Positions 18,524-55,699 of a DNA stretch of 59,243 bases are shown in pieces. Made by a program: the position numbers and the translations under genes. Position 1 is the stretch's first letter; each line of letters begins with the position of its first letter. The stretch comes from a virus (Duplodnaviria > Caudoviricetes): the IMG/VR virus record IMGVR_UViG_3300022690_001351, positions 1 to 59,243 of that record. One strand, 5' to 3'. The notes beneath the pieces are model-generated. The model searched no databases. It saw nothing but the letters and a program-made list of their open reading frames with translations, and was not told the DNA's origin.

Positions 18524-20290
18524 CTATAATGTTATTGCGTATCTGCTGCTTGCAGTATAAGTAAATTGAATAAAATCGTCAGCCGCTCCAGTAAATGCCT
18601 GTAAAAATGCCTCATCATTTTGTTGTGCAATGCCTGCAATCAAGGCAACCCCAGCGGTTTTGGTTGTAACGATTGTAGGCGAAGAACGCATAAATGTTGG
18701 ATATTTTACATTTTGTCGTTGTATTTGTGTAGCTGATGCAACAGGAAGTATATAAAATTGATCAACACCTACACGCTCGTGATAAAATCTTTGAGCCAAA
18801 TCCAACTCAGTACCTTTTTGTCTTCGCTCAAATTCTGTTACAACACTGTTTATCTCAAATTGTGCTTTTGAAAAATGATATATAAATGTTATTCCTGTGG
18901 GTAATACTAAAAAGAATTCCAATCGATCATTTCCAGCTGAGCCTAATGTCTTTCCTGAGATGCTTGGTATAGTAACTGTTGCAGTAAATAATTGTTCTGC
19001 GGTTGTAATATTTAAAGTTGTACCATCGGTATCTACGCTGGTACTAGGTGAACCACCAGTGCCAAAGTTCTGTCTGAATCTTGGTATAACATTAATTGCG
19101 GTATTTGCTAATGCAAAAAATGAAACAGTTACCTGCTGATTACCAGCCGCAGTGCGGACGCTCTCAATTCCTTGAGCGACAAAAGGACTGACAGATGTTG
19201 CTGCTCCAGATTGATCATGCTGATAAAAGAACTCAGGCTCGCCAGGTACATCGGTCTGTCCTAAAGTAAACGGCTGTTGTGATTGTGTATAACTACCATC
19301 ACCACCTGATCCAATCCACTGATCCATCACATAGACATTATTAGTAGTTGATGACGTACCAACGGCTGATTCTTGTATTATATCAAACTCAGGATTTATA
19401 AATAGATTTTTTCTAGCTTTAGTCTGTTCTTGGTCAAGGATTTCCTGCCCCCTCATATTAAAGAAATAGCCTGATGATGTGCTATCGCCATATAGAATAG
19501 GCTTGCTTATTTGTGTAACGCCTGTAGGCTCTGAACTTGTTAATACACCTGCTGATGTAGCAGATAAAAAGAAAAAAGTGCCAGCCGCCAGTCCTGATAA
19601 TCCTTCTATAAATCCACCAACAGTTAGTATCAAAGCATTCGCATCTGGAACGCCACTTATTATTCCTACAACTTCCGCATTAGTTGTGGTGTCCGCCTGA
19701 GCTAATACGTAATCTCCTGCCAAGTTTTGACGAACAACATTGCCAGCTACAAGTCCATGCCCTGGTTGAATTATTGATCTTCTAAGAGTTCCACCAGTGC
19801 CACCATTGACTCTTATTACTCGAATTACATCATTAGGCTCGTCAAATTTGCATTCAATATGTCTGTTAGCAGGGATAGCCCCAGCAACAAGATTTGTAAC
19901 TCCATCCGCTGCTTTTGCCTGTTTCGCAGCAAGAGTACCAACTTTTATAGTAACAGCCGAAGATGTATTGGCATTAGGGGTTAGAAATTCGATTTTCATA
20001 TCGTCCAAATATTTGAACGGAACTTTGTTCGTCCCATTACTACCAAGAGGATCGTTATTTATAGGATTCAAAACATAAGCATTTGCAATTCCACTATCAA
20101 CATAGGCCGTTGCATTTGCCGCCATACCAACCATAGCAATACTTCCTTGGTTATGATTACTTTTGTTTGGAGTTTGCCCTGAGTCAATTATAGGCTGATC
20201 TACTTCCTCTGTTATAGAATTTAGATAATCATCCTCAGCTTGTGGCTGCTCATTATTTTTAAATTTTGCTGCTGGCGAAGTTATTGACAT
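18524..20290 (-). CDS. tail fibre protein
   Basis: After gp48 homolog in tail order; KNLFINPEFDI..MDQW and ELDLAQRFY motifs, Gly/Thr-rich. Confidence 0.75.
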   Translation of the reverse strand: MSITSPAAKFKNNEQPQAEDDYLNSITEEVDQPIIDSGQTPNKSNHNQGSIAMVGMAANATAYVDSGIANAYVLNPINNDPLGSNGTNKVPFKYLDDMKIEFLTPNANTSSAVTIKVGTLAAKQAKAADGVTNLVAGAIPANRHIECKFDEPNDVIRVIRVNGGTGGTLRRSIIQPGHGLVAGNVVRQNLAGDYVLAQADTTTNAEVVGIISGVPDANALILTVGGFIEGLSGLAAGTFFFLSATSAGVLTSSEPTGVTQISKPILYGDSTSSGYFFNMRGQEILDQEQTKARKNLFINPEFDIIQESAVGTSSTTNNVYVMDQWIGSGGDGSYTQSQQPFTLGQTDVPGEPEFFYQHDQSGAATSVSPFVAQGIESVRTAAGNQQVTVSFFALANTAINVIPRFRQNFGTGGSPSTSVDTDGTTLNITTAEQLFTATVTIPSISGKTLGSAGNDRLEFFLVLPTGITFIYHFSKAQFEINSVVTEFERRQKGTELDLAQRFYHERVGVDQFYILPVASATQIQRQNVKYPTFMRSSPTIVTTKTAGVALIAGIAQQNDEAFLQAFTGAADDFIQFTYTASSRYAITL

Positions 20291-20367
20291 AACAAGATAT
20301 AATTATATTGACTAATTACATTTTATAAGTAAAAAAAAATAATGCAAGGTTTTTTTGTAATTAACAC

Positions 20368-20396
20368 TTGACAAGTCGCCGCCCATGGTGTAGAAA
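20368..20396 (+). promoter_or_regulatory. conserved-spacer promoter, copy 3 (tRNA-Glu)
   Basis: TTGACA-AGTCGCCGCCCATGGTG-TAGAAA. Confidence 0.8.
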
Positions 20397-20406
20397 TAAA
20401 ATTTAT

Positions 20407-20478
20407 GCCCCCTTCGTCTATCGGTTAGGACATCAGGTTTTCAATCTGAGTAGGCAAGTTCGATTCTTGCAGGGGGTA
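20407..20478 (+). tRNA. tRNA-Glu (TTC), CCA not encoded
   Basis: Acceptor GCCCCCT/AGGGGGT, D arm GTCT/GGAC, anticodon arm TCAGG-TTTTCAA-TCTGA, T arm GCAAG-TTCGATT-CTTGC. Confidence 0.9.
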
Positions 20479-20481
20479 CAT

Positions 20482-21084
20482 TTAAGTATTAAAAAACAAG
20501 ATACCAACATTAGCAGGCTTTAATATCCCGAATATGCACTGTAATATACTCTGTTGACCAATTGCAGCAGGTGTAAAAGGTACATCATAAGGTGGTACTT
20601 CTGGTATAATGCCATCCCCTCTAACTACCATAATAAACCTTGATGCAGGTGATTTTGTAGGAATAAAAGGTACACAATAAGGAGGAAATGCCTCATCTTG
20701 AAGTGGAGTCACGGTTACAACAAATCCGAGTAACAAGGCTATCTCTTCAAATTGTTCTTGTGTTGATACTCCGCTAGCACGTAATTTAATTATAATATTG
20801 GCACGTCGCTCTTCTATGGTTGGTGCGATTGTAAAACACGCATCAGGAATACCAACAGCAGACTCCCATTCTTCTATAAATAACGTTGTATTAAATATAT
20901 TATGCTCTTCAGCAACAGTTGCAATTTTATTCTCATCTCTTACAAATTCTTTAGAAAAAGCGGTGAATAAATTGTGTATATTACTATCAGGAATGTTTTT
21001 TTGATCAAATAATTTACCTAGTGGTAAAAAACTTACAGAAATCTGTGTATGATCTACTAATGTATTTCTATTAAATTTTACCAT
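20482..21084 (-). CDS. baseplate protein, Mu gp48/YmfQ (DUF2313)-like
   Basis: LPLGKLF, EEWESAVGIPDAC, IEERRANIIIKL, QCIFGILKPAN motifs. Confidence 0.85.
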   Translation of the reverse strand: MVKFNRNTLVDHTQISVSFLPLGKLFDQKNIPDSNIHNLFTAFSKEFVRDENKIATVAEEHNIFNTTLFIEEWESAVGIPDACFTIAPTIEERRANIIIKLRASGVSTQEQFEEIALLLGFVVTVTPLQDEAFPPYCVPFIPTKSPASRFIMVVRGDGIIPEVPPYDVPFTPAAIGQQSILQCIFGILKPANVGILFFNT

Positions 21085-21101: not shown

Positions 21102-21131
21102 TTGACACGCTCGGCGATGACATGGTACTAT
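21102..21131 (+). promoter_or_regulatory. sigma70 promoter carrying an inverted copy of the conserved spacer motif
   Basis: TTGACA-N18-TACTAT; reverse complement of 21105-21125 is CCATGTCATCGCCGAGCGTGT. Confidence 0.7.
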
Positions 21132-21170
21132 ATATTGTACTACAATCTCAATAAAAATCAAGATGTACAA

Positions 21171-21680
21171 ATGGTTACTGCAAGATATACAAAAAATAAG
21201 ACAGCAAAAGGGTATACGAGAATATCGTTATGGATTCCAACATCAGAAAAAGATGAAATTAATTCATATATTGAATTTAAAAGGGATCGTTGGGAATGCG
21301 AGACTGGCACAGGATTTAATAGTAACAAAAAAAAAGAATTAATGAATGCTATTGAGGAACTGTATCATGACGGTTCTGACTTAGAATCTATTGCTAGACA
21401 ACTTAATGATCGTGGTTTTACAGGAATGTATGGGGGCATCTTGTATGCTAGACAAATAAAAAGGCTGTGGAGAAGTGAAACAGGAATAGAAATTGATTCT
21501 GATAGAAAAAATGAGTTGATAAATATAGTAAAAAAATTACACAAAGACGGTTGTGACTTTGAATCTATCGCTTCTCAACTTCGCAAGCTTGGTTTTAAAG
21601 GTCATAATTTACATAGAAAACAAATCCAAAGATATTTAGATATGAAACAATCCCTTGACAAGTCACCACCCATCATGTAG
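21171..21680 (+). CDS. putative DNA-binding regulator with tandem recombinase-type HTH repeats
   Basis: KGYTRISLWIP (RHH-like) plus two repeats ESIARQLNDRGF / ESIASQLRKLGF; no catalytic recombinase domain. Confidence 0.6.
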   Translation: MVTARYTKNKTAKGYTRISLWIPTSEKDEINSYIEFKRDRWECETGTGFNSNKKKELMNAIEELYHDGSDLESIARQLNDRGFTGMYGGILYARQIKRLWRSETGIEIDSDRKNELINIVKKLHKDGCDFESIASQLRKLGFKGHNLHRKQIQRYLDMKQSLDKSPPIM

Positions 21681-21683
21681 TGT
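21655..21683 (+). promoter_or_regulatory. conserved-spacer promoter, copy 4
   Basis: TTGACA-AGTCACCACCCATCATG-TAGTGT; predicted +1 at or next to G21690. Confidence 0.85.
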
Positions 21684-21689
21684 ATACAA

Positions 21690-21788
21690 GTCGGAGTAGC
21701 TCAGTTGGTTAGAGCGGCGGTTCATAATATTTAGACCCATGGATCGATTATGAGGTGTAGGTCGGGGGTTCGAGTCCTCCTTCCGACA
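21690..21788 (+). ncRNA. tRNA-like RNA with elongated anticodon arm
   Basis: Canonical acceptor GTCGGAG/TTCCGAC, D arm GCTC/GAGC, T arm GGGGG-TTCGAGT-CCTCC; about 25 extra nt in anticodon arm. Confidence 0.8.
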
Positions 21789-21808
21789 TTAACATTTAGG
21801 AGGTTACA

Positions 21809-22996
21809 ATACAGACATTTCCATCAATTTCACAATTTCATTCCGTTAGAAAGTATTTAAAAAAGAATGCTTTAGATTTTGACATTCAATATCGAGCAAA
21901 GATTAAACTACATGGTTGTAATGTTGGTGTGCAATATGCTAATGATGGTCGTATTTATGCTCAATCTCGCAATGGCATCATTACACCTAAAGATGATCTT
22001 TTTGGTTTTGCAGCTTGGATTGGAGAAAACATTGATTGGTTTAGATTGCAATTTAAGTATATAGATAAATCTGTTCGTCCTATAACTATCTTTGGTGAGT
22101 GGTGCGGTAAAGGGATTCAAAAAAATACAGCCATAAATAAAATTGATCGAAAGATTTTTGCCATTTTTGCTATTCAATTTGAAGACTCTATTATGGTAGA
22201 ACCCAAAGCTATTGACGCACATTTAAACAAGGATTTAGCAGTATGGGAGTCTTCTCTACAGCCAGATAATCTATATATTTTACCATGGTTTGAAGAACGC
22301 TTACCATTGTTTACAAGTCTCTTAGGCGTATCAAATCTTAATATTATGTATAATAATGATTGTTCTATAAAAGAGGCTGTAGATTATCTTAATGATTGTG
22401 TAACTAAGATTGAAAAATGCGATCCTTGGGTTAAAAAAGTTTTTGATATTGAGGGAATTGGAGAGGGATTAGTTTGGTATCCATGTCTTGAAAAATCTCT
22501 TTGGGATGTCGACTTCGAAAAAACTAGTCAAGATATGTCCAAAAGTTTTGTTCAATATGATTCTTGGTCTAAAGATGTATTCGGCTGCATATCAAAAATT
22601 GGGAAAGGGACGGTTTTAGAATCCTATGTAAAAGACGGCTTTATAGAGTCAGGTGAATTTTCTAAATATGTCTTTAAAGTCAAAGGTAAAGCACATAAAG
22701 TAAATACCTCAAAAACTGCCGTGCAACTTGATCCTGATGTTTTAAAAAATATTAATGAATTTGTAGACAAGTTTGCAACTGAAAATCGTTTCATGCAAGG
22801 TGTTTGTGAAATCAATAATGGCAATCCTATATTTGAACAAAAATTAATTGGCAAGTTTATTGGTTGGGTGTCTAAAGATATTAAGAAGGAATCCGCCGCA
22901 GAGCTAGAAGTTAGCGGGTTAATCTGGCAACAAATAAATAATAAAATTACACAGCGTAGCCGTGAGTGGTATATCAAAAAATTAGAGGAGGTTTAA
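21809..22996 (+). CDS. RNA ligase (Rnl2-like nucleotidyltransferase), probable ATA start
   Basis: Motifs KLHGCN, SRN, FGEWCG, FAIFAI, EGLVW, KVK; AGGAGG 5 nt before ATA; in-frame TAG at 21797. Confidence 0.85.
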   Translation: MQTFPSISQFHSVRKYLKKNALDFDIQYRAKIKLHGCNVGVQYANDGRIYAQSRNGIITPKDDLFGFAAWIGENIDWFRLQFKYIDKSVRPITIFGEWCGKGIQKNTAINKIDRKIFAIFAIQFEDSIMVEPKAIDAHLNKDLAVWESSLQPDNLYILPWFEERLPLFTSLLGVSNLNIMYNNDCSIKEAVDYLNDCVTKIEKCDPWVKKVFDIEGIGEGLVWYPCLEKSLWDVDFEKTSQDMSKSFVQYDSWSKDVFGCISKIGKGTVLESYVKDGFIESGEFSKYVFKVKGKAHKVNTSKTAVQLDPDVLKNINEFVDKFATENRFMQGVCEINNGNPIFEQKLIGKFIGWVSKDIKKESAAELEVSGLIWQQINNKITQRSREWYIKKLEEV

Positions 22997-23227
22997 ATGA
23001 GTGGTTTTTTTAAGGCATGGAATGTGAGCTTCTTTAAAAGCTTCAGCATGTCCCTGAGCAAAGGCTTCGGCTAAAATTACTATATTCCGATTATCAGTCG
23101 GTGTGGCTGTGGCTGCACAGGGTTCAGCAAGCATACAAGCCGAATAGGCTTCATTAAAAGTTGCACTTTGACAAACAGCATCATAAGCTGCATTATACCG
23201 ATCGCCAGCTTTTTTTGTCATACTCAT
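22982..23227 (-). CDS. Ala-rich hypothetical protein
   Basis: ATGA overlap with 23224 ORF. Confidence 0.55.
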   Translation of the reverse strand: MSMTKKAGDRYNAAYDAVCQSATFNEAYSACMLAEPCAATATPTDNRNIVILAEAFAQGHAEAFKEAHIPCLKKTTHLNLL

Positions 23228-23784
23228 TTCAATACATCCATAAAAGAAGCACAAGTTTTAGTTGCCTTTTGAAAACCATCAAAAGCAATGTCGATATCTT
23301 TGTTGTTTTGAGCAATTGCAGTCACCATAGTTCTATGAGAGGATTCATAGGATTTATAGTCTTCTGAGGTAAAATAGGCTTCATAGCTTTTGTCAGCAAT
23401 AGATGCCTGCTTTGTATGGAGCCGTGCCATTATTTCACTTGCATCCATTATAGTTTTTCCTGCCGCAATAAGTTTATCATATTTATCATCATGAAGAACT
23501 GCCCTAAAAGATATCCAAGCCGCCACAGTTGCGGTGTAATAATCCGCATTAGCAGATGCAGCCTTACTCGCCGCCTTTAACTTATCTGGCATATCAACCT
23601 TTTTAGCTACATTCTCAGCGGCGTCAGCCTCTTCACGTTTCTCGACAAGCATCATCATAGCATCGGTCATAATGAACATAAGATCAGCGTCAGCAACATC
23701 ATAATTGCCAGCCTTAACGTCAGCCCTGTAACCAATCTCAGCCTCATTAAGTGTTTTAAGTGCTTCTGTTATAACTTTATCCAT
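23224..23784 (-). CDS. Ala-rich helical hypothetical protein
   Basis: AAAGGA RBS, 186 aa. Confidence 0.7.
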   Translation of the reverse strand: MDKVITEALKTLNEAEIGYRADVKAGNYDVADADLMFIMTDAMMMLVEKREEADAAENVAKKVDMPDKLKAASKAASANADYYTATVAAWISFRAVLHDDKYDKLIAAGKTIMDASEIMARLHTKQASIADKSYEAYFTSEDYKSYESSHRTMVTAIAQNNKDIDIAFDGFQKATKTCASFMDVLK

Positions 23785-23805
23785 GGCATTTCCTTTATTA
23801 AATTA

Positions 23806-24129
23806 TTATCTCCAAATCTCCACATCAACACCATAAATTGCCTTAACCATTTTACGTTTTAACATAGATACTACAGTATCAACGCCCTTGCTGTCAATGA
23901 CTCTTTCTCTATTTTCTTTTATATCAAAAAATCTAAAGTCTGCTTTATAAAAACCAATCTTTACATCATTAATAATCAAGTCATATCTCGGCTGCAACTC
24001 AAGGTCTTTAATTGCACCTGCTCGCACAAGCAATTTCAAGTCACTGTAATGTTTACCTTCTAGTTTACTGTCAAAAGTAATATTGTCTATTTTTATTTTG
24101 ATATTTTTGTACTTTGATTTATGGGGCAT
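23806..24129 (-). CDS. DUF1064 PD-(D/E)XK endonuclease
   Basis: SKYKN, FDSKLE, LELQPRY, YKADF, DSKG motifs. Confidence 0.85.
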   Translation of the reverse strand: MPHKSKYKNIKIKIDNITFDSKLEGKHYSDLKLLVRAGAIKDLELQPRYDLIINDVKIGFYKADFRFFDIKENRERVIDSKGVDTVVSMLKRKMVKAIYGVDVEIWR

Positions 24130-24184
24130 AACTCTATATAATCAGATAAAAAAGATAAAACAATAAATATTTTTTAATTACTGC

Positions 24185-24291
24185 TTGACAAGTCACCACA
24201 TAACATGTAGTATATAGTTATTATCAACAGACGCAATCGCAGTTACAGGTTTAATCCGCTCAACTGATGCTTTGCTAAGTGATATAAATTA
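24185..24291 (+). repeat. promoter copy 5 plus leader, about 107-bp direct repeat of 45330..45436
   Basis: TTGACA-AGTCACCACATAACATG-TAGTAT then leader; identical to the 45330 copy except one base. Confidence 0.9.
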
Positions 24292-24319
24292 CAACTTTAA
24301 TTTTAATAGGAGAAAAACA

Positions 24320-24544
24320 ATGTCTAATTTAAAAACAAAAAACACTAAAATGGATCGTTTTGATAAACTAGAAAACGATGCTGATAATAAATATAATGAA
24401 TATCAATTGAATAAAGGCAGCGATAAGCATCGCATGGCTTATGAAAAAGCCCAAAGTGCTTTTGTCGAATTTCAACATGAAATCGATCCTGAGGACGAAT
24501 ATATAAGCGATATGTCTTTTGAAGAGTATACAGATTATTGCTAA
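24320..24544 (+). CDS. small acidic hypothetical protein
   Basis: AGGAG RBS; flanked by about 40-bp direct repeats. Confidence 0.7.
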   Translation: MSNLKTKNTKMDRFDKLENDADNKYNEYQLNKGSDKHRMAYEKAQSAFVEFQHEIDPEDEYISDMSFEEYTDYC

Positions 24545-24582
24545 GTGATATAACTACAACTTAATTTTAATAGGAAAAGACG

Positions 24583-24771
24583 GTGAGCATAATAAAAACT
24601 AAAATTGAAAAAATGTCCACAAAGAGGATAAAAACAGAACTCAAATATTATAAACAGGTTAGGGATAAGTGGGATAGTATACCTGATAACCCTAAAAGTG
24701 TAGCTTCTACAGTAATAAAAATATTTGAACGGGTGCTTAAAGAAAGGGAGAAAGACAATGACTGCAAATAG
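24583..24771 (+). CDS. hypothetical protein
   Basis: GTG start after AGGA. Confidence 0.55.
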   Translation: MSIIKTKIEKMSTKRIKTELKYYKQVRDKWDSIPDNPKSVASTVIKIFERVLKEREKDNDCK

Positions 24772-25204
24772 TCCTGAAGAATTTATAAATAAATTTATAC
24801 ATGATTGTGTTTATCAAAATAAGAAAGAGTATCCTGAAAAATATAAAGCAAGTTATCTTAAAGAATTTCTGGAAAATTGCACTGAAGAATTTTTAGGACA
24901 TTATACTACTAAAGAATATCTGGAAAATCATCTAAGAAGTGTACTTTCAATGAATGGTTACATCCCTATTTGGCGTGATATTAAAACCTTATCTAAAGCA
25001 ATTGATGACTTTCTTAGTGTGAGAGGGGAAATGTATAGCCTTAATACATTAGAACGAGAAATTGCTAAAAGATGGAGAATTGATCCTAAAAAATACAGCC
25101 ATATGTATCTACTTAATGAATTAATTAAAATACGAAATGGTGACTCAAAAGCTGATGATGAATATTGTAATAATTTTGGTTTTTCCTATTACACTCTTTT
25201 TTAA
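24758..25204 (+). CDS. hypothetical protein
   Basis: GGGAG RBS before MTANS. Confidence 0.65.
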   Translation: MTANSPEEFINKFIHDCVYQNKKEYPEKYKASYLKEFLENCTEEFLGHYTTKEYLENHLRSVLSMNGYIPIWRDIKTLSKAIDDFLSVRGEMYSLNTLEREIAKRWRIDPKKYSHMYLLNELIKIRNGDSKADDEYCNNFGFSYYTLF

Positions 25205-25221
25205 CTAAGGATATTAATAAA

Positions 25222-25467
25222 ATGATAACTAAAGTATTAATACTTCAATCATGCATAGTATGTGACGATGGTTTTAAGATAATACGGCTTGAGGCGGGCA
25301 AGACATATGATGTGAGACGCACCGTACTGGACGACCTCAGGGGTAAAAGAATCCTTGGTAAAAAGGTATACAGGATTGTAAAAATGCCACTAGCATGCTC
25401 TAAAGTCAATACCCCTGAAACCAGAGCATGTGCAAATATACAAATTGATAGGTTTAATTATGGCTGA
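25222..25467 (+). CDS. hypothetical protein
   Basis: AAGGA RBS. Confidence 0.6.
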   Translation: MITKVLILQSCIVCDDGFKIIRLEAGKTYDVRRTVLDDLRGKRILGKKVYRIVKMPLACSKVNTPETRACANIQIDRFNYG

Positions 25468-25840
25468 TGTAATAAACATGCACGAGTTCAAGCGTAGGCA
25501 GAATAGTAACTCGATAGTGCGAGAGTCAAATGCTAATAAATTAAGTCAATCAGAAAAAGATTTACTACAAGGAAAACTTGATTGGTTAAATATAGTTTAT
25601 GAAGCTGAACTTGGTATATTAACACAAAGAAAAAGGACTTTAAAATTTGTTGAAAGACAAATCTTAATTGTTACAAAACAATTATCAATGCAATTAATTT
25701 CTGAAAATTGTAGAAACGATTTACAAGAGATGAAAGATCATAAAGAAGAGCTTAAATATGATATTAATTATATTAATAACAGCAGGCAAAAAATAGATCA
25801 AGAGGCTATGGAAATTCACCATCAATTAAACTCTAATTAG
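25460..25840 (+). CDS. coiled-coil hypothetical protein
   Basis: MADVINMHEFKRR start overlapping previous stop. Confidence 0.65.
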   Translation: MADVINMHEFKRRQNSNSIVRESNANKLSQSEKDLLQGKLDWLNIVYEAELGILTQRKRTLKFVERQILIVTKQLSMQLISENCRNDLQEMKDHKEELKYDINYINNSRQKIDQEAMEIHHQLNSN

Positions 25841-25849
25841 GAGATTGTT

Positions 25850-26167: not shown

Positions 26168-26272
26168 AACTACCTTAGACTGCGTTGGAATAACAATTTT
26201 TATTTCATCATGGGTATTAATAATTGCAATTACACCAATAGGATAAAATACAGAAAGCGGAGAAAGAATAGC

Positions 26273-26301: not shown

Positions 26302-26326
26302 ATAATGAAATTAACAGGAGTTTAAA

Positions 26327-43910: not shown

Positions 43911-43916
43911 CATACG

Positions 43917-47784: not shown

Positions 47785-47968
47785 GTAATTCGATTATAAT
47801 ATTTGGTCTATGTTGTGGAATATTTTTTTCATGACGGGCATAACAGCCACATTGATATCAAAGGCAAAAATAAAAAAAATCAAAGAAAAATATGAGAAAA
47901 AAATTACAGAAATAAAAAAAGAAATAAAAGAAGAAATTAAAAAGTTTAAAAAATAGAAAAGAGTTATT

Positions 47969-48475
47969 ATGTCAAGTAAATTAAGAATGGCTGCTCAATA
48001 TGGACATGTTGAAAAAGTTATAAAACTTTTAACTAAAGATATTGATATTAATGCTCGTGACTGCAATAATCGTACAGCTTTAAACTTTGCAGTTGCAAAC
48101 GGACATATACATACAACAAAGCTATTAATTGAAAAAGGTGCTGATATTCATACTGTATATGACGATCATTCTCCATTATTACACATAACCACTTTATCAA
48201 AAGATTTATTAATGGCAGAGTTGTTATTAAATGCAGGTGTAAATATTAATGATATATGTGGGGATCGTCGTAGTACAGCATTACATGGGGCTGCCATGAA
48301 TGGCAATGTAGATGTTGTAAAATTTTTGTTAAAAAATAATGCAAATAAATATCTAAAAAATAATAGAGGCGAGACAGCGTTGGATCATGCTAAACACAAT
48401 AAAAATTCTTATTATCGTCGTAAGCGTAAGCAATATGAAGAAATTATAAATCTATTAAAGGAGGGATCAGAGTGA
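47969..48475 (+). CDS. ankyrin repeat protein
   Basis: TALNFAVANGH, TALHGAAMNGN, GETALDHA repeats. Confidence 0.95.
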   Translation: MSSKLRMAAQYGHVEKVIKLLTKDIDINARDCNNRTALNFAVANGHIHTTKLLIEKGADIHTVYDDHSPLLHITTLSKDLLMAELLLNAGVNINDICGDRRSTALHGAAMNGNVDVVKFLLKNNANKYLKNNRGETALDHAKHNKNSYYRRKRKQYEEIINLLKEGSE

Positions 48476-48750
48476 TGGTAATTAGGTGTGCATACAATAC
48501 AACGAGATACAGGCTAGCTATTTTGTGCGCATGCCATAAACATAAATAAGGTTTTACCACATCTTATGTTATATGGAGTTAATCTATGTTGGAGTCGTTA
48601 GTTAGGGTAGTGATTGCATAGGATTAACACTTGGTTACCATCATTTTGTTTTATGCTCGTGTCCAAAAACCAAAGTTCAGCTGACAACGGTTAGACGGTA
48701 AAAAGCAGGTCAGCGGATATGATTCTTCTAAGTCCGTCCACGAGCAACCT
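48473..48750 (+). ncRNA. candidate structured RNA region (two adjacent folded domains)
   Basis: 17-bp closing helix 48473-89/48627-43 with G-U pairs; second domain closed by TGCTCGTG/CACGAGCA. Confidence 0.5.
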
Positions 48751-48801
48751 TAATTATTGCGGAGATACGATCTTTTAGAGAAAATTAAAAAAGATACTAC
48801 G

Positions 48802-49068
48802 ATGACTGATAAATTTCCAAAATATATAAATGGTAGGATTACATTTCATGATCAACATAAGGTGCAATTTGTATACCTCGAGAAATTTAAAAATAATGAT
48901 GACAGCATTGAAATAGAATGTCCAATTATTAAGAATATTAATATTAGTAAAGAAGATAAACTAAGACTTATGGAACATAACAAAATATTTCATTTACACT
49001 GTGGAACTTTTTTTGATGTCAAAATGGAAGTAACAAAAGAAATTTATAAGATTATAGAAATTTACTAA
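48802..49068 (+). CDS. hypothetical protein
   Basis: ORF beginning MTDKFPK. Confidence 0.55.
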   Translation: MTDKFPKYINGRITFHDQHKVQFVYLEKFKNNDDSIEIECPIIKNINISKEDKLRLMEHNKIFHLHCGTFFDVKMEVTKEIYKIIEIY

Positions 49069-49074
49069 TCAACT

Positions 49075-49103
49075 TTAACTTAACTTAACTTAACTTAACT
49101 TAA
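49075..49103. repeat. (TTAAC)5-TTAA microsatellite
   Basis: Perfect pentamer run abutting the AAGGAG RBS of 49113. Confidence 0.9.
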
Positions 49104-49112
49104 GGAGACGCT

Positions 49113-49568
49113 ATGACTGATGAGAAAAAACCTAAATCTAACCCAAGACCTAAATCTAACAAAAAACCAGAAGAAATCTCAACGAAGACTGGATTCATAG
49201 TAGTGGCATTATTATTATGTTTTGGAACTTGTACAGTATTATTGCATGAGCCTATTACACCCCCCTCCCCCTCACCTGAACAACAGGCTACTAGGGATAG
49301 AGAACAGTCTGAAGCTGATAGTGAAAGAAAAGCAATATCACTATGTAAAAGGGCTGTTGAAAAAGCTGCCGAAGGTTCTGCGGTTGATTTTGCTTGGGGT
49401 ACTGCCTATGGCGTTGATATGGAAGATGGTGTTTGGTGGATTCATTTACCGAACACTAAAGTACAAAACGCTTTTGGAGTATGGATAACATATAAGGCTC
49501 TATGCACAGTATATCCAGATGATCACATAGAAAACTTTGCTATGAATCAGGGTGTAACACAGTATTAA
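49113..49568 (+). CDS. single-TM protein with periplasmic domain
   Basis: Basic N-tail, TM, Pro linker, Cys pair. Confidence 0.7.
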   Translation: MTDEKKPKSNPRPKSNKKPEEISTKTGFIVVALLLCFGTCTVLLHEPITPPSPSPEQQATRDREQSEADSERKAISLCKRAVEKAAEGSAVDFAWGTAYGVDMEDGVWWIHLPNTKVQNAFGVWITYKALCTVYPDDHIENFAMNQGVTQY

Positions 49569-51481
49569 ATAGTATTCTGACCAACATTGAAGTTAGGCAT
49601 ATTCTTTGATTGCGTATTAACTTGAGTGCCTTGAGGTAGGTTATTAAAATTAACATCTACAATTGCACTTGATTCAGGGGATTTGCCTTGCTGTGATGCT
49701 GTGGTTTGTGTGGGAGATGGGGCTGCTGTGGGTATAGATGCAGTAGGTGCAGTGGGCCCAACAAAATTAGTTTTATCTAAAGCTGCCCTAAGTGCTAATT
49801 TTGTTTTGGCTATCTCCCCTGGTGTTACTGAGGCAAGCCTTTCTTTGATAGTCTGGATAGGCGTTCCTAATGCTTGAGCTGCAAATTTTTTAGCTACTTC
49901 TGCTCTTTTTATTTCTCTTTCTTTTTCAAGTTTTTCAAAAAATGGAATTCTTGCAGGCTTTGCAGCTAAACCTATAAGCTTCCCAAATCTACTTGTTAAC
50001 GTCTCAACTTGTTTTATTTCTTTAAAAAGACCAAATAATTGAAAAAATTTAAGACCAGCATTAAAAGTCTCTATAAATACATCACCTAAAATAGCAATTG
50101 CGAGACCTGCCGCCGCTATTCCAGCAGCAAAAACCAGAAATGTTACGGCTGCAGGTGTTAAAGCTAAACTTAATAAGCCAACTGCTATAGCTAATGGCCC
50201 TAATACAGCAGTCAATCCTAGTGCTAATAGAATCATCGATTTTGTTCGTGGACTTAATTTTTTAAATCCCTCTGCCATTTTTTGTATTGTAGCAGTAAGC
50301 CCTTTCATTTTGTTTTTTAAATCAGTAGTTTTAACTATAGAATCACCAAACACTGCAGATGCGAGAAAAACATTATCTTTTAATGTAGAAAATACACCTG
50401 CAAGTGATTGAGATTGTTTTTCCATGGCATTAAATGCTATGCCACCTTTTTTTGTCATATTCCTCATGACGCTTGTTATTAAGTCAAATTTTATCTTTCC
50501 TTTTTCTGCTAATTTAAATATTTGATCCTTGGTTAAGTTAAGTCTTTTTGCTAACCTATCTATGACTGGGATTCCTCTTTCACTAAGTTGTAATAACTCC
50601 TCCGTCATAGCCTTACCTTTATTTTTAATTTTAGCGAAGATGGCAGACATATCTGTCAAAGGCGTTTTAGTCACGGAGGCAATATCACCGAGCAACTTTA
50701 ATCTATCATTCAATTCACCTGTTGTTACGCCAGCGGCTAATAATTGAGTAGCTGCCTTTCCTATTCCCTCTAATTGGAAAGGCGTTTTTGCTGCAAAATC
50801 TGTTAAAGATTTTACGACTTGTTTTGCTTTTTCTGTACTGCCGGTTAATGAGTCAAAAGATATTTGCATTGTTTCTATTTTTGCAGATGCAACTAACGCA
50901 CCAATGCCTAAAAGAGCAATAGGAGCAGTAAGCCTTAAAGTTACTGCCCTTCCTGCATCTCTCATTGATCTACTTACTTTATTCATGCTCCTAGAAAGTG
51001 TAACGCTACTTACAGCAGCTTTTCTCATTGATGCAGCAGCTTTTCTCATTGATGTGGCTAATTTTATAGTGGCTACAGTAGCCTTTTTCGCCGCAGCTGC
51101 AGTTGTCGCAGTTGTCGCAGCAACCCTGGCTAGAGCAGTAGAATTTAACCTAGCAAAAGCGGTGTATTTTCTAACACTTGTAGCCACATTTCTCGTCGCA
51201 ACTGTAGTCTTTCTCGTCGCAGTGGTAACTTGAACCGTAGCCACCGTAGCCGCCTTCGTAGCCGCAGCCGCAGCCGCAGTAGCCGCAGTAACCTTACCTA
51301 TTGACGCAGAATTGATTGACGCACTTTGAGCCGCAGTTTTCATTGAATTAGACATCTTTTTAAATGATGCATTGCTTTTTAATGCACTTTTATTCATGGC
51401 GTCCATCGATACTTTAATCCTCTTCGCAACCGCTGAGAACTTATCTATTGCCTGTATAATAAATGAAATGTCTGTAGCCAT
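49565..51481 (-). CDS. tail tape measure protein
   Basis: AIDKFSA start, FAAKTPFQLEGI, LGDIAS, EELLQLSERGIP, FSTLKDN tape-measure motifs. Confidence 0.95.
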   Translation of the reverse strand: MATDISFIIQAIDKFSAVAKRIKVSMDAMNKSALKSNASFKKMSNSMKTAAQSASINSASIGKVTAATAAAAAATKAATVATVQVTTATRKTTVATRNVATSVRKYTAFARLNSTALARVAATTATTAAAAKKATVATIKLATSMRKAAASMRKAAVSSVTLSRSMNKVSRSMRDAGRAVTLRLTAPIALLGIGALVASAKIETMQISFDSLTGSTEKAKQVVKSLTDFAAKTPFQLEGIGKAATQLLAAGVTTGELNDRLKLLGDIASVTKTPLTDMSAIFAKIKNKGKAMTEELLQLSERGIPVIDRLAKRLNLTKDQIFKLAEKGKIKFDLITSVMRNMTKKGGIAFNAMEKQSQSLAGVFSTLKDNVFLASAVFGDSIVKTTDLKNKMKGLTATIQKMAEGFKKLSPRTKSMILLALGLTAVLGPLAIAVGLLSLALTPAAVTFLVFAAGIAAAGLAIAILGDVFIETFNAGLKFFQLFGLFKEIKQVETLTSRFGKLIGLAAKPARIPFFEKLEKEREIKRAEVAKKFAAQALGTPIQTIKERLASVTPGEIAKTKLALRAALDKTNFVGPTAPTASIPTAAPSPTQTTASQQGKSPESSAIVDVNFNNLPQGTQVNTQSKNMPNFNVGQNTI

Positions 51482-51631
51482 ACTGAACCTTTAATACCGA
51501 CGGCTTGCTTATTAGTGAGCCGTCTATAACGATGAAATCTCGTATAGTGTATGAGGTTTAATCTGAATTGTAAATAAAAAACTCCGCACGCCTAGACAGT
51601 ATACGGAGTTTAGAAAGACGCTATAAAGATG

Positions 51632-51661
51632 ATTATATTATTATAAATTATGCAGTGTCAA
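51632..51661 (-). promoter_or_regulatory. sigma70 promoter upstream of tape measure gene
   Basis: TTGACA-18-TATAAT. Confidence 0.6.
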
Positions 51662-51666
51662 GAGAT

Positions 51667-52218
51667 TTATAGGTTTTTTATATACATAGGACCGCGGACA
51701 TCAGAATTTATTGCTTCGGCGGATTCTAATGCAGCTAGTATCCTTTTTTCTGGGTCTTTATCATCTTTTGTAGTCCAAAGCGAACCTCGTGCTGGTGTAT
51801 TGCCATCACCAATAGCATGCCCGCATTTATGACAAATTAATACATCATAACTATATCTAATGCAATAAAGAACACCCTTGTAACCTATTAACATATCTCC
51901 TACAAAAGTATCTCTATTTTCTGAAATTACTGCATACCCTGCATCCTTAAATATTTTGCGGAGATTTTCAATAACTGTAGTTCTTATAAATTTCTCATCG
52001 GAATCATTTTGATCAAGACGAATAGGATTAAAATTATAAGTTACAATGTCTATCATTTTATTACGACCTGTAATGCCAATTAAGAATTGATCATATTCAG
52101 TTTTAATCTCAAAAATTTTATTTTGATGAGATGTTATATATGTATCTTCGTCATTTATACAGGAATCAGCCCCCATATAAACCTTGCCTTGATCTTCAAT
52201 TCCTACAATACACGTCAT
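51667..52218 (-). CDS. Ntn-hydrolase, HslV/proteasome-beta-like peptidase
   Basis: MTCIVG...MGADS with Thr2 nucleophile, NKIF, AIGDG motifs. Confidence 0.75.
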   Translation of the reverse strand: MTCIVGIEDQGKVYMGADSCINDEDTYITSHQNKIFEIKTEYDQFLIGITGRNKMIDIVTYNFNPIRLDQNDSDEKFIRTTVIENLRKIFKDAGYAVISENRDTFVGDMLIGYKGVLYCIRYSYDVLICHKCGHAIGDGNTPARGSLWTTKDDKDPEKRILAALESAEAINSDVRGPMYIKNL

Positions 52219-52247
52219 AGTTACTCCTTTTTAAAATTAAAAATAGA

Positions 52248-52445
52248 TTAAATTACTTCTTGCTCTATAGCATGGTCAATAGCTTTTCTTATCAGAGAAC
52301 TTTGATATACTACTGGGGTGCCATATTTCCTGTCTTTATTAGCTTCCATAGCTACTTTTTCTAAATATTTCTTTTGCCTGAAAGGAAGGTGTATTGAAAA
52401 TGTCACCGCCTTTTCATCATCATTCTTGTCTTTATCCTCAGTCAT
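52248..52445 (-). CDS. ribbon-helix-helix-like protein
   Basis: VTFSIHLP...QSSLIRKAID. Confidence 0.55.
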   Translation of the reverse strand: MTEDKDKNDDEKAVTFSIHLPFRQKKYLEKVAMEANKDRKYGTPVVYQSSLIRKAIDHAIEQEVI

Positions 52446-52776
52446 TTTCAGCCTCTTTTATTTTTAATAATCTATTATACTCTTTATCAGTAATACCAGC
52501 ATGACATTGGGCAACGTCAAGTTCTTCAACAGCCTCATCAACTCTTTCAACAGCCTCATCATACTCCCTTTTGGCATCCCTTATTGCACCTTCTTTTTTT
52601 AATGATAAAACCTTAATCCTAGCGGCTGTTAAGTCTATTTCACCTGTTAATATTTCATGTAAAAATGTAAATGATTCAAATACTGCATCAGGCACTGCTA
52701 ACTTTGAGTCACCACACCATGTTCTTACTTCTTCTCTGGTTATGGTTTTATATTTAAGTCTTTTTTCCTCAGTCAT
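52438..52776 (-). CDS. hypothetical protein
   Basis: GGAG RBS before MTEEKR. Confidence 0.65.
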   Translation of the reverse strand: MTEEKRLKYKTITREEVRTWCGDSKLAVPDAVFESFTFLHEILTGEIDLTAARIKVLSLKKEGAIRDAKREYDEAVERVDEAVEELDVAQCHAGITDKEYNRLLKIKEAEND

Positions 52777-52807
52777 TTTTATCTCCATGTTAAACATATC
52801 ACAACAT

Positions 52808-52836
52808 AGCATATAATAACTAGTTGTGTATGTCAA
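52808..52836 (-). promoter_or_regulatory. sigma70 promoter for three-gene insert
   Basis: TTGACA-17-TATGCT. Confidence 0.6.
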
Positions 52837-52842: not shown

Positions 52843-53040
52843 TTAATAGCCATCCCTTTTTTCTTTGGCGTTGTTCTCCCTGTTTTTTCTATGTGTGAAT
52901 TTAGCTGTTTGATATACTTGAGGAAGTGGCATGTTCTCAAAAGATTTTATATCCCCTAAATGACTATAGTTAGCAAGACTGAAAATGAGATAATCAAGTT
53001 CCTCAATCGCTCTATCTCCTAGAACGTGATAGGCAAAAAA
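52843..53040 (-). CDS. -1 frameshift extension of tail assembly chaperone (gpGT/E+E'-like)
   Basis: Slippery TTTTTTG at 53040-53034; -1 frame open to TAA at 52843, containing FENMPLPQVY. Confidence 0.7.
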   Translation of the reverse strand, partial: FFAYHVLGDRAIEELDYLIFSLANYSHLGDIKSFENMPLPQVYQTAKFTHRKNRENNAKEKRDGY

Positions 53041-53522
53041 TTCTTTATATATGCTCCCAATACTCCCTCTTCATCAGCCGCCTCAAGCTCGCCATGTAAA
53101 TGGTCATTAAGTGGAATCTCACCATCAATCTTACAGCAATCCTCTAAAATTAAAATTTCTTTTAATGCTTTATAGCAATCTTCAATGTCAACTACCGTGG
53201 AACTTAATAATTGAAATGTGATTTGCCTAGGTGTTAAATCAGCTACTATATCTACAGATTCTTCTTCTTCTTCTTCGTTCTTTGATTTGGATAAAGTGTC
53301 TCTTGCTTTCTCAATTGCATCGTCTGATAGGTCTTTTGCTAAATCAGCGAAATTTTTACGAAATACTTGAGCAATAAGTCGTTTTAATTTTCTGCATGGC
53401 TTTTTTAAGACTTTATTTCTTGTAGGGGCTTTGATGACAAGATAAGTGCCTTCATGATCTGCAACGCCAGCTTTGGAATATTTTATTGGAGTAGTTAGTT
53501 GAAATGTAAAATCTTCTTTCAT
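53019..53522 (-). CDS. tail assembly chaperone
   Basis: Between tube and tape measure; FQLTTPIKY start; slippery site near end. Confidence 0.75.
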   Translation of the reverse strand: MKEDFTFQLTTPIKYSKAGVADHEGTYLVIKAPTRNKVLKKPCRKLKRLIAQVFRKNFADLAKDLSDDAIEKARDTLSKSKNEEEEEESVDIVADLTPRQITFQLLSSTVVDIEDCYKALKEILILEDCCKIDGEIPLNDHLHGELEAADEEGVLGAYIKNFLPITF

Positions 53523-53677
53523 TATTTTTCCTCTATTGGATTATTAATTTCAGGATTAAGCTCAACTTTAATTGTTCCTTGAATAGATTTGATTGGTCGA
53601 ACCATTTGTATTTTTACATCTATAGGCATACTATAATCAAATGTCTCATAAAAAAGAAACTCTGACAGTGTAACCAT
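53522..53677 (-). CDS. small hypothetical protein (51 aa, not in ORF track)
   Basis: AGGA RBS, TAATG overlap with chaperone, TTGACA at 53736-53731. Confidence 0.45.
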   Translation of the reverse strand: MVTLSEFLFYETFDYSMPIDVKIQMVRPIKSIQGTIKVELNPEINNPIEEK

Positions 53678-53746
53678 AATAATTTCCTATACATGTTATA
53701 TACATAATATATAGAGAATATATATATGATTGTCAAGGGGAGGGGG

Positions 53747-54136
53747 CTATACCGCAGAAGCAGACATCCATTCAAGATCAATTGCACCATCAAAAGCAAG
53801 AGCTACAGTATAAATATTTGTTAATATAGCGTTATTAAAAGTTCTGGTAATACCTTCATTGACCCACTGTACAGAATGACCATTTGGGATATTGCTAACC
53901 TTTAATGCACGAGCAGATTCAATTAGTTCTGATGTGTTTTTAAAAGAAAATTTAAAGCTGCTGAAACGAGTTTCACCATTATCAGCAATCACAGCCTCAA
54001 ATGCACCGCCGCCAGCAGACAGAGTAGTTATAGATTGTTCTCCAAGACCCTCATCATACTCAAAAGAATTTGGTACGATCAAAAATCCAACGTTGTCTAT
54101 TATGACTTGTGGTAATGTAATAGCTAATTGTACCAT
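53747..54136 (-). CDS. tail tube protein
   Basis: Directly after sheath; 129 aa, beta-rich, IVPNSFEYDEGLGE. Confidence 0.75.
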   Translation of the reverse strand: MVQLAITLPQVIIDNVGFLIVPNSFEYDEGLGEQSITTLSAGGGAFEAVIADNGETRFSSFKFSFKNTSELIESARALKVSNIPNGHSVQWVNEGITRTFNNAILTNIYTVALAFDGAIDLEWMSASAV

Positions 54137-54151
54137 TTCGAAATCCTTTTA

Positions 54152-55699
54152 TTATGCTGCTATATCGAACACAATTTGTGTTGTTCCACGAAATTCTCTA
54201 GCTTGGACAACAAGTGGTGTTTGCATGTCAATTCTCACAAAACCATCTATTAAGATTGTATTTACAACAAGATTTTGTTTAAAAAATTGTATATTTTCCT
54301 CGCCCGCCCTAGTAAGTACAAAATCGACCTTTGATAATATATCATATAATCCAGTCAAGAATCCTGCTATTTGATCCGCATCAGCAAAATTTCTCTGAGC
54401 AATAGACTGTCCAGGATCAGTAAGACGATGTTGTGGATATGCAACTCTTAAATTATTAACAAAGAATTCACGCACACCTCTGGAAGTTCTTACTACATTC
54501 TGGAATTTAAATGTCTTATCAGGTTGTCCAGCATTATTTGTTTTATACGTGGTAACAATTTCACCCATTAATACTTTACGATTATTTTGATCATTTTCAA
54601 TAACACTTATACCTACATCATTTAATGAATTAATTTCAAGTTGTGTCCAGTGAACATCCTGATCAATAACTGATAAATTATTCAGTGGAGTATTAAAATA
54701 TGGTAGGCTGGCAATAGCAGTGCCTCCTGTAGTGTCTCTAGCTCCATTCACTGAAGTGACAAGTCTAGAAAGATTTGAGCCATCTGTTAATCTAAGTGAA
54801 TCTATAGCTGCAAAAAGAGCGGCTATATTTGCATCAAGCTCGAACTCCATTGAGCCTTTATATAATGCCTTGTCTACTTTTTGATTACCAAGTACGATAA
54901 GATTTAATGTATCTTCTCCGTCTCCGATAGTATCCAATGCACTAAACGTATCAGTAATTGATACATATGCAGAACCATCAAGTATATTATTTTCAACGTT
55001 GCTTCTTGCATCAAGAAAATCTGTAAATTCAATACGATCATAAGTACTTGGAAATGCGATTGTTTGATAACGCAATTTATCAGAAATAACACCAAATAAA
55101 GTAGTCAGGCTAGGATTTGTAAGACCACCTGTCATTGCTGTTAGACTTGTTGTAATACCTGCAACGCTGCCTGTTACTTCCAAGCCTATTGTATTACCTT
55201 CTAAACCACCTTGAACTGCTGTTAAAGTCACAACACCCGCTGTATTTCCTGCTGTAGTTGGATTTGTTAAATCTGCTGTAATTGCTGTAACCAACTTTGC
55301 TGCTACAACGGCTTCAGTGTCCCCGCTTACAATATCAACATTAAGACTATTATTTTTTCTTGATCCTATATTAACAACGAGCGTACCATTTTCTGTGGCA
55401 GTACCTGCAAATGTAATAGTACCTGTAGCATCAACAGCCGAGCCGTCATCATCTAAGCCTATTGCATCAATTTGTGTTAATTGATTTATTCTTTTAAACA
55501 TCCGCACTTGTGAGGCAAGCATAGAATTTATGCCGAAGAATGTATCTTCAGATGAGTCATTTAATATATTTTCTATTAATGCACCGCTTGTAGCAGTGGC
55601 AGCTGAAGTTTGCTGACCAACCAACAAAACCTTTTGCGGCTCGTTTGAGATTATTTGAGTAGCTGGTAAAATAACTAAAGTAATATTAGGATTAGTCAT
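54152..55699 (-). CDS. tail sheath protein (Mu gpL-like)
   Basis: KVLLVGQ, FGINSML, ATGTITFAGTATENGTL, IVTTYKTNNAGQPD motifs. Confidence 0.9.
   Translation of the reverse strand: MTNPNITLVILPATQIISNEPQKVLLVGQQTSAATATSGALIENILNDSSEDTFFGINSMLASQVRMFKRINQLTQIDAIGLDDDGSAVDATGTITFAGTATENGTLVVNIGSRKNNSLNVDIVSGDTEAVVAAKLVTAITADLTNPTTAGNTAGVVTLTAVQGGLEGNTIGLEVTGSVAGITTSLTAMTGGLTNPSLTTLFGVISDKLRYQTIAFPSTYDRIEFTDFLDARSNVENNILDGSAYVSITDTFSALDTIGDGEDTLNLIVLGNQKVDKALYKGSMEFELDANIAALFAAIDSLRLTDGSNLSRLVTSVNGARDTTGGTAIASLPYFNTPLNNLSVIDQDVHWTQLEINSLNDVGISVIENDQNNRKVLMGEIVTTYKTNNAGQPDKTFKFQNVVRTSRGVREFFVNNLRVAYPQHRLTDPGQSIAQRNFADADQIAGFLTGLYDILSKVDFVLTRAGEENIQFFKQNLVVNTILIDGFVRIDMQTPLVVQAREFRGTTQIVFDIAA

Follow-up and report, generated by a model that had tools for sequence, protein, structure and literature searches.

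A phage Mu-type tail gene module divided by opposite-strand gene islands, with a ten-copy promoter-like repeat, in a metagenomic virus record

The DNA analysed here (the window, 59,243 nucleotides) holds the complete virus record G000 (IMGVR_UViG_3300022690_001351, Caudoviricetes), a genome of about 34% G+C in which no terminal repeat was found over the 59,243 bp, and the subject of this work is its contractile-tail gene module, which lies in pieces on the minus strand. Few features of tailed phages are as well conserved as the gene order of contractile tails, for which co-transcription and the order of assembly are the usual explanations. Genes were annotated with an open reading frame (ORF) map of our own, PHROGs and Pfam, and on this map the genome comprises 14 strand blocks (Table 1). 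No annotated close relative was found when 24.5 kb were compared with GenBank phages by megablast, a tRNA being the sole match (3 records), and a search of the N protein against viral contigs gave no match.

Read along the minus strand, the tail genes follow the order of phage Mu, namely sheath, tube, chaperone, tape measure protein (TMP), N, P, gp45, gp46, gp47, gp48 and fibre. TMP, N, P, gp45, gp46, gp47 and gp48 score above Pfam's own cut-offs. The Pfam domain of the sheath scored under its cut-off, and this gene was identified by tblastn as 25-29% identical to annotated sheath genes of Mu-like and SfV-like phages. For the tube, no sequence family was matched (PHROGs, Pfam) and the PDB sequence search was also empty, as it was for the 405-aa protein at the right end. 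A model of the tube protein built from a six-sequence alignment (predicted local distance difference test, pLDDT, 70.9) has as its best PDB matches myophage tail-tube chains, including that of phage Mu, with TM-scores of 0.5-0.62, and the ORF at 53747-54136 matches a tail tube by this predicted fold. At the end of the chaperone gene a T_TTT_TTG slip site (53034-53040) is combined with a -1 frame extension (52843-53070, open to 52843), which suggests the -1 frameshift expected of a tail assembly chaperone.

Table 1. Features of the window from right to left (promoter copies are copies of the predicted promoter repeat described in the text).
Feature	Position	Strand	Content or basis of assignment
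Backbone segment 1	59193 to 49565	-	12 ORFs; order matched in relatives
Right-to-left start of segment 1		-	405-aa conserved virion gene (57976-59193), 128 aa, 505-aa virion protein, 80 aa
Sheath	54152-55699	-	tblastn to annotated sheath genes
Tube	53747-54136	-	fold match (model)
51-aa ORF between tube and chaperone	53522-53677	-	
Chaperone	53019-53522	-	slip site and -1 ORF
Three co-directional genes	51667-52836	-	132 aa, 65 aa, HslV-like peptidase (51667-52218)
TMP leader	51482-51666	-	12/12 consensus promoter (predicted) 51661-51632, terminator-like hairpin with U-run, second hairpin
TMP	49565-51481	-	Pfam TMP_3
Plus island between TMP and N	45317-49568 (insert 45417-49568)	+	about 10 small ORFs and ankyrin gene 47969-48475
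Start of TMP/N island	45330-45358	+	promoter copy, then conserved leader of about 75 nt
N, alone between two plus units	43937-45274	-	Pfam DNA_circ_N
Divergent cassette between N and P	42547-43910	both	ankyrin gene 42547-43296 (-); 139-aa ORF 43491-43910 (+)
64-aa gene and P block	41095-42519	-	
P, Mu P-like baseplate hub	41095-42219	-	Pfam GpP-like_1st, GpP_4th
Plus island between P and gp45	38831-41117 (insert 38889-41117)	+	promoter copy 38831-38859
Genes of the P/gp45 island		+	210-aa ORF (38889-39521), phosphoesterase-like ORF 39587-39880, 90-aa ORF, HNH endonuclease 40087-40908
gp45	38132-38785	-	Pfam Phage_Mu_Gp45
gp46	37672-38259	-	Pfam GP46
gp47	36122-37669	-	Pfam Baseplate_J
Neck block, inverted and displaced	34017-36135	+	132-aa connector-region gene, 56 aa, tail completion/Neck1 34663-35133, three small ORFs
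Promoter copy within neck block	34422-34450	+	
Lysis-like block	32698-33901	-	Rz-like spanin 33551-33901, two conserved ORFs; kept in G004
Plus block	24185-32514	+	promoter copies at 24185, 26273, 30716
Genes of plus block 24185-32514		+	RecE-like exonuclease 27077-28033, SMC/SbcC-like ATPase 28200-29924, ankyrin gene 29917-30690
Further genes of plus block 24185-32514		+	phrog_3657 ORF, helix-turn-helix (HTH) regulator 32137-32514
Minus block	22982-24129	-	Holliday junction resolvase-like gene 23806-24129, 186-aa ORF
Plus block	21102-22996	+	192-aa ORF, promoter copy 21655-21683, tRNA-like gene 21690-21788, RNA ligase-like gene 21929-22996
gp48, standing alone	20482-21084	-	Pfam Phage_Mu_Gp48
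Promoter copy and tRNA-Glu	20368-20479	+	copy 20368-20396, then tRNA-Glu 20407-20479; reads toward gp48 3' end
Fibre	18524-20290	-	
Minus block	11723-20290	-	fibre, 172-aa and 316-aa ORFs, TerL 15784-17178, portal 13492-14847, MuF-like 11723-12694
Head block	7213-11665	+	protease, major capsid, 139-aa ORF, head-tail adaptor, promoter copy 11130-11158, 157-aa ORF
Left-arm promoter copy among small ORFs	4003-4031	+	repeat match

The module is thus of Mu type by gene content and order, minus the contiguity of such modules, which is absent from the window. Gaps of 1540 bp (chaperone to TMP), 4293 bp (TMP to N), 1720 bp (N to P), 2312 bp (P to gp45) and 15040 bp (gp47 to gp48) separate genes of the backbone, and the co-directional multi-gene runs are the 12 ORFs at 59193-49565, gp45-46-47, and fibre-TerL-portal-MuF. 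Head genes are divided as well, with TerL, portal and MuF on the minus strand and protease, major capsid and adaptor on the plus strand. The first-pass annotation, made from the sequence alone, had described a Mu-order minus-strand backbone, a split set of head genes and inserts comprising a 51-aa gene, three genes with a peptidase, plus islands, a divergent cassette, about 15 kb of other genes and a tRNA; all of these are present, and the order rests on gene identities obtained by Pfam, tblastn, fold and slip site.

The last gene of the TMP/N island and the TMP stop overlap by 4 bp, and the neck block overlaps the end of gp47 by 14 bp. The latter block belongs to the 15.0-kb insert between gp47 and gp48 (21102-36135), which carries neck, lysis, recombination and RNA ligase genes and whose minus block at 22982-24129 has an internal promoter-like site ending at 23868. 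In the divergent cassette the two genes stand head to head with the same predicted promoter, 5' untranslated region and first codons, in a 48-nt inverted repeat (43279-43326 / 43461-43508, 98% complementary), and a G/C hairpin (43916-43936) lies between the cassette and N. Most island ORFs are without a family match in PHROGs or Pfam. Three ankyrin-repeat proteins (Table 1) score well over the Pfam cut-offs. Overlapping 3' ends were seen at 4 of the 8 convergent junctions, 2 of the 4 resting on weak TTG-start ORFs, and transcripts of both strands must therefore overlap at these 4 junctions; the opposing transcription that had been proposed for this phage is in that sense built into the layout.

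In order to place this layout, homologues of gp47 were collected by protein search (145 homologues, many on contigs of 47-60 kb) and IMG/VR was scanned with a gp47 profile made from a 9-sequence alignment, which gave 23 loci; the near-complete relatives used were G001 (47.6 kb, 89% complete) and G002 (55.3 kb, 100% complete). Relatives at 40-50% protein identity carry the same tail genes contiguously on a single strand. In G001, 36 ORFs form an unbroken 29-kb block on one strand in the order protease, capsid, adaptor, two neck genes, 405-aa gene, sheath, tube, chaperone, TMP, N, P, gp45-48, fibre, TerL, portal and MuF, and the junctions that span 1.5-15 kb in the window measure at most 137 bp in G001; for the five gaps given above, the values in G001, L018, L030 and L020 do not exceed 63 bp. 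When a junction was counted as closed at a gap of 300 bp or less over the 23 gp47 loci, TMP to N was closed in 5/5 loci with no exceptions, N to P in 13/14 (L037, 656 bp), P to gp45 in 15/16 (L015, the close relative of the window, 994 bp), gp46 to gp47 in 19/20 (L027, 424 bp), gp47 to gp48 in 16/17 (L027, 4.4 kb) and gp48 to fibre in 10/14 (four gaps of 755-1869 bp). Since the same junctions are closed in nearly all of these loci, the interruptions of the window are more than chance, and the premise that such tail genes normally form one contiguous unit holds among the phage's own relatives.

The interrupted layout recurs in the closest relatives. Opposite-strand islands interrupt G004 and G005, two contigs of one close relative at 76-82% identity, at the P/gp45 junction, behind gp47, where the neck genes are inverted, at the junction of the 405-aa and 128-aa genes, and behind the peptidase gene. 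L093, a 4-kb contig of a separate record at 71-85% identity, carries an island at the P/gp45 junction, likewise on the opposite strand, that includes a homologue of the window ORF 38889-39521. Gene content of the islands varies among the window, G004 and L093, and a homologue of the window gene 3469-3942 is found in the G004 island after gp47. The HNH endonuclease gene 40087-40908 (+), which may be a homing element, is without a counterpart in the same-junction islands of G004 or L093. Together with the contiguous wider relatives, these independent contigs indicate that the interrupted layout is real, specific to this lineage and derived, and that it is not a misassembly. The synteny comparison which the first-pass annotation had proposed as a check therefore favours its description, and misassembly, which it had named as a possible refutation, is not upheld, as contigs of two closer relatives show the same layout.

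An artefact of assembly, that is a chimera of two or more phages or a wrong join at repeats, would draw some plausibility from the metagenomic nature of the record, which is present in one public run only, a DNA run that may be its source, with no RNA run listed, and from repeats of 28-136 nt that could mislead an assembler. These repeats are nevertheless below typical read length, the backbone is perfectly collinear with its relatives across all islands, the G+C content at third codon positions (GC3) is uniform, and three contigs of other records possess the same kinds of junctions with homologous flanking genes, so that an artefact is considered extremely improbable.

Whether the interruption could be ancestral, with contiguous relatives streamlined by deletion, bears on the direction of change. 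Some relatives do carry a few islands: G002 has two on the opposite strand, the first separating the 405-aa gene from the sheath and the second located in the neck region, and L027 has its 4.4-kb insert between gp47 and gp48. A quick maximum-likelihood tree of gp47, which contained the window and 20 of the 23 loci (L026, L036 and L037, partial or weak matches, were omitted), joins the window with L015 (support 100) as sister to L016 and L017 (98), and this clade is nested among contiguous genomes. Homologues of the island genes are almost absent from G001 and G002, and distant Mu-like phages such as those matched by the sheath are generally known to have their tail genes together. Against this evidence an ancestral interrupted state appears very unlikely, and the clade forms a graded series, in which G001 is contiguous, G002 bears a few islands and the window, G004/G005 and L093 are heavily interrupted.

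Two blocks of structural genes have changed strand or place with respect to these relatives. Genes of the head block are on the same strand as the tail genes in G001 and G002, and in G001, L018 and L030 the homologues of the neck genes are found upstream of the 405-aa gene and on the same strand as the tail. The 505-aa virion protein (56038-57555, -), which has a sialidase N-terminal-type domain (Pfam 36.9 bits, cut-off 26), is likewise shifted in position relative to G001, where its homologue lies between the capsid and adaptor genes. It was of interest to consider programmed inversion, in which a phage invertase would flip segments and the record would represent one isomer. The ORF 21102-21680 beside gp48 gives sub-threshold recombinase hits (Pfam Recombinase, E 0.002, below cut-off; phrog_95, E 0.0004), and the 48-nt inverted repeat at 43279-43508 could be read in the same sense. 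The flanking inverted repeats of an invertible segment of Gin/Cin type are however missing, since long inverted repeats flank no island (none among the 17 pairs listed); moreover, backbone genes never switch strand and the orientation is identical in the contigs of three relatives. Programmed inversion is for these reasons hardly credible.

A repeated 28-nt element, CTTGACAAGTCGCCGCCCATCGTGTAGT, in which 17 nt separate a TTGACA box from a TAGTAT box preceded by TG, is present on the plus strand; its conserved form comprises TTGACAA, a 16-nt GC-rich spacer and TGTAGTAT. A degenerate pattern returned 10 copies where 0.01 would be expected, and a repeat finder recovered the same 10. All ten are on the plus strand, nine fall within the intergenic 7.7% of the genome, and the copies end 7-133 nt ahead of the next plus-strand feature. 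Those at 24185, 38831 and 45330 stand directly after divergent junctions and open islands, those at 26273, 30716 and 34422 lie in the interior of plus blocks, and those at 4003 and 11130 are in the left arm. Copy 20368 ends 11 nt before tRNA-Glu and copy 21655 ends 7 nt before the second tRNA-like gene, which is the spacing expected if the repeats are promoters. Alignment of the copies revealed A/T-rich DNA upstream, and relaxing the pattern (to TTGAC, followed by TG and a -10 box) gave 13 hits, 11 of them on the plus strand, while the 2 on the minus strand precede cassette genes and not tail genes. With such elements at their heads, the islands look like separate promoter-led transcription units, and what is new here is this ten-copy family of putative sigma-70-like promoters heading islands and both tRNAs.

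The second tRNA-like gene (21690-21788, +) scores 43.8 bits with the Rfam tRNA model and was missed by ARAGORN; it has 38 nt in the anticodon arm compared to 13 in the model, and the extra nucleotides could be an intron or the sign of a disrupted tRNA.

Close relatives possess comparable elements of their own. G004, from which the exact motif of the window is absent, has a 76-nt repeat with TTGACA and a -10 core in 5 copies, each ahead of an ankyrin gene, and no comparable short repeat family was found in G001 or G002. The orthologous promoter of L093 has an AT-rich spacer, as do the G004 repeats, and the GC-rich spacer is consequently specific to the window. This spacer (for example 4009-4025 and 24191-24207) occurs in two forms, copy 21655 having three differences from the main form, all CpG to CpA. 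The same promoter with a very similar spacer, TTGACAAATCACCACGAATCGTGTAGTAT, was seen once before a gene in an unrelated low-GC IMG/VR phage represented by three redundant contigs (L095, L096 and L097), which has no protein match to the window. In G004/G005 (loci L044 and L014), several ankyrin-like stretches lie on the island strand, at least 5 of them preceded by the relative's own promoter repeat, and near one end of G005 (L014, 70-272) a tandem array of GGTGGGACGTTT units is present.

Some copies are followed by a conserved leader of about 75 nt, found in the window at 24214-24290 and 45359-45435 (+) and in the close relative near 3535 of L014 (-) and near 7855 of L044 (-). The leader is kept at the nucleotide level in the 2 window copies and in G004/G005 before unrelated genes; a 15-mer taken from it occurs in 47 viral contigs, nearly all by chance, and of these only the two from the close relative are relevant. 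The leader could act as a cis-regulatory RNA or serve as a handle for recombination. Five cassette genes (24309, 34480, 43480, 46222 and 47198, +) have a common ribosome-binding site and first codons (GGAGAA..ATG, M-T/S-N/D-L-K); these starts were considered as the mark of a paralogous family, an idea that was rejected as the proteins are otherwise unrelated.

The minus-strand backbone was then examined for signals of its own. A TTGACA-N17-TAAGAT site precedes the sheath gene, its -35 region being kept in G005, and a CCCCTTGACAAT site between tube and chaperone is also kept in G005. The leader of TMP combines a 12/12 consensus promoter with hairpins (Table 1), and its 149-nt fold (z -3.15) was equalled by 0 of 200 shuffles. 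Well-supported predicted promoters of the backbone are consequently limited to three, those of sheath, chaperone and TMP. The first genes of eight backbone segments have weak anti-Shine-Dalgarno pairing (median +1.2 vs -5.4 kcal/mol for the other 93 genes, p 0.0001, a post hoc comparison), and in several of them a -10-like box stands 6-11 nt upstream of the ATG, a hint of leaderless or short-leader mRNAs; Shine-Dalgarno pairing is good for the N, gp45, gp46 and gp47 homologues of G001. The earlier proposal, in which promoters for each gene and opposing transcription replace operon-level late control, stands in part only: the plus islands appear promoter-led (10 copies) and opposing transcription is built into the layout, but the minus backbone lies in co-directional multi-gene segments with three supported predicted promoters, and neither control of each tail gene by itself nor a loss of operon-level late control is supported.

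A further structured element (32570-32697, -) lies at the convergent junction of the HTH gene and the lysis block. It has a 13-bp closing stem around four hairpins and folds at -45 kcal/mol (z -4.27; equalled by 0 of 200 shuffles), and no Rfam match was obtained at the gathering score.

Taken together, these observations are best explained by the invasion of a contiguous ancestor, at its gene junctions, by promoter-led cassettes, after which the tail would be expressed in multi-gene segments; this explanation is thought fairly probable. The ancestor would have had one contiguous one-directional block of head, neck, tail, baseplate and fibre genes, as in the relatives. Accessory cassettes would then have entered the junctions between tail genes, most facing the opposite way and each behind a copy of the sigma-70-type promoter, to act as autonomous transcription units. 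A single inversion between MuF and the 405-aa gene would account for the plus-strand head block, and the neck genes would have been inverted and moved to the gp47/gp48 junction before the window and G004 separated. Cassette content would turn over fast among close relatives, with recombination at the promoter and leader repeats as the probable mechanism. The backbone would be read as several multi-gene segments, some with sigma-70-like promoters of their own (sheath, chaperone, TMP), and convergent transcription would collide at island ends. The data show directly the identity, order and strand of the genes, their contiguity in relatives and the repeat family with its placement; promoter activity, the mechanism of recombination and segmental transcription of the backbone are what we infer here.

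Several points weigh against invasion by promoter-led cassettes. Every close relative is a contig fragment, and the gp47 tree is a quick search on one gene with midpoint rooting. Composition gives no sign of a recent foreign origin: island and backbone G+C are 0.324 and 0.363, but GC3 is equal (0.258 and 0.245, p 0.37), which indicates that the islands are not recent arrivals from a compositionally different source, and a foreign origin of the islands by composition was rejected. Promoter function of the repeats is deduced from sequence alone. Their exact GC-rich spacer is absent from G004, G005 and L093, no stem-loop was found at the 10 copies (98-nt windows, 10/10, z -0.51 to +1.13 relative to shuffles), and copies 11130 and 34422 lie next to or before structural genes, so that the class is not simply 'accessory' or 'early'. 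Generic promoter scans were at chance (85 found vs 90 expected, and 108 vs 93), as were generic terminator scans (9 vs 10, and 15 vs 10), and no evidential weight was given to these scans. Finally, a clear promoter was not found before N, P, gp45, gp48 or fibre.

This last point, together with terminator-like sites at chance level, is also what would be anticipated from read-through, in which one or two long late transcripts of the backbone would pass antisense, by antitermination, through islands active only early or silent late, and the logic of the operon would be kept. Four of the eight convergent junctions leave no space for a terminator, and the backbone genes all have one orientation and the ancestral order, in agreement with such transcripts. 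On the other hand, a backbone-strand hairpin with a U-run stands between the peptidase gene and TMP beside the 12/12 promoter, the promoter-like sites before sheath and chaperone are conserved with G005, and the weak Shine-Dalgarno pairing with -10-like boxes close to the ATG fits separate short-leader starts, post hoc as this comparison is. Read-through is regarded as rather unlikely.

A more elaborate version of cassette invasion may be formulated as a timing device. Mobile promoter and leader modules would have actively broken up the Mu-type late operon; strong cassette promoters would be active first and, through convergent transcription, repress the tail segments; and the window-specific GC-rich spacer would be the operator for one phage regulator (for example the HTH protein 32137-32514) that later shuts all of them off, releasing tail segments whose first genes are on leaderless or very short-leader mRNAs. 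This version is speculative and held to be doubtful.

The invasion of the module by cassettes, if correct, has consequences for the understanding of synteny in phages. Tail gene order can survive where co-transcription appears to be lost, as Mu order and strand are kept across 2-15 kb of opposite-facing genes, and the clade of the window hence separates co-transcription from assembly order, two explanations of synteny that are usually hard to tell apart. The same clade provides a natural series in which to study accessory cassettes invading a late operon, and the ten-copy promoter family is a concrete, testable handle on this process. The ankyrin genes of the cassettes may hold a separate interest. 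A scan of genome contigs gave only a 2.6-kb contig of a Gammaproteobacteria metagenome-assembled genome with 105 residues of a gp47 relative, which was rejected as too little to name a host.

With respect to known systems, the morons of lambdoid phages (HK97, lambda) are extra genes with their own promoter, placed between late-operon genes and absent from relatives. Inserts between late-operon genes that relatives lack are found in the window too, and promoter-like repeats are present, although terminators were not found at most island ends. Unlike morons, the inserts of the window are many, some are multi-gene units of 2-8 kb, and they include essential-looking neck, lysis and recombination functions; there is also no evidence of lysogeny or of prophage expression for this phage.

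The promoter-early stem-loop (PeSL) cassettes of T4-like phages are mobile regulatory cassettes in which a promoter, with a stable stem-loop in it or beside it that serves as terminator, stands before ORFans in plastic regions, and mini-circles of them have been described (PMC2839356, PMC4122927). The window shares with them repeated, presumably strong, sigma-70-like promoters with AT-rich upstream DNA, which stand ahead of ORFans in variable regions at exchange points between close relatives and occasionally in virion modules. Unrelated genes beside the same cassette in close relatives correspond to the pattern of PeSL-mediated shuffling (PMC2839356, PMC4122927). The differences are that the ten window copies are without the defining stem-loop, that the phage has a genome of about 59 kb with a Mu-type tail and is not T4-like, that its cassettes mostly face against the structural genes and break the tail operon at about seven junctions, and that its spacer has a conserved GC-rich element, with a conserved leader of about 75 nt after some copies.

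Accessory loci between core genes have precedents elsewhere. In Pseudomonas Mu-like phages, variable short ORFs are restricted to loci between conserved core genes in a Mu-like architecture, as in the window, but these phages are siphoviruses with long flexible tails (PMC4378225). Among Microbacterium phages, Cluster EC is reported to have 17 ORFs separating terminase from portal, and Cluster EJ four leftwards genes within its structural operon (PMC7302621). These are one or two interruptions per genome, whereas the tail module of the window contains about seven by itself, in addition to an inverted head block. In open-access full text, a search of which cannot show absence, no account was found of a Mu-type tail operon interrupted at about seven junctions by promoter cassettes on the opposite strand. 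The layout can be recognised as known phage genome mosaicism taken to an extreme, and its closest kinds are PeSL cassettes and morons.

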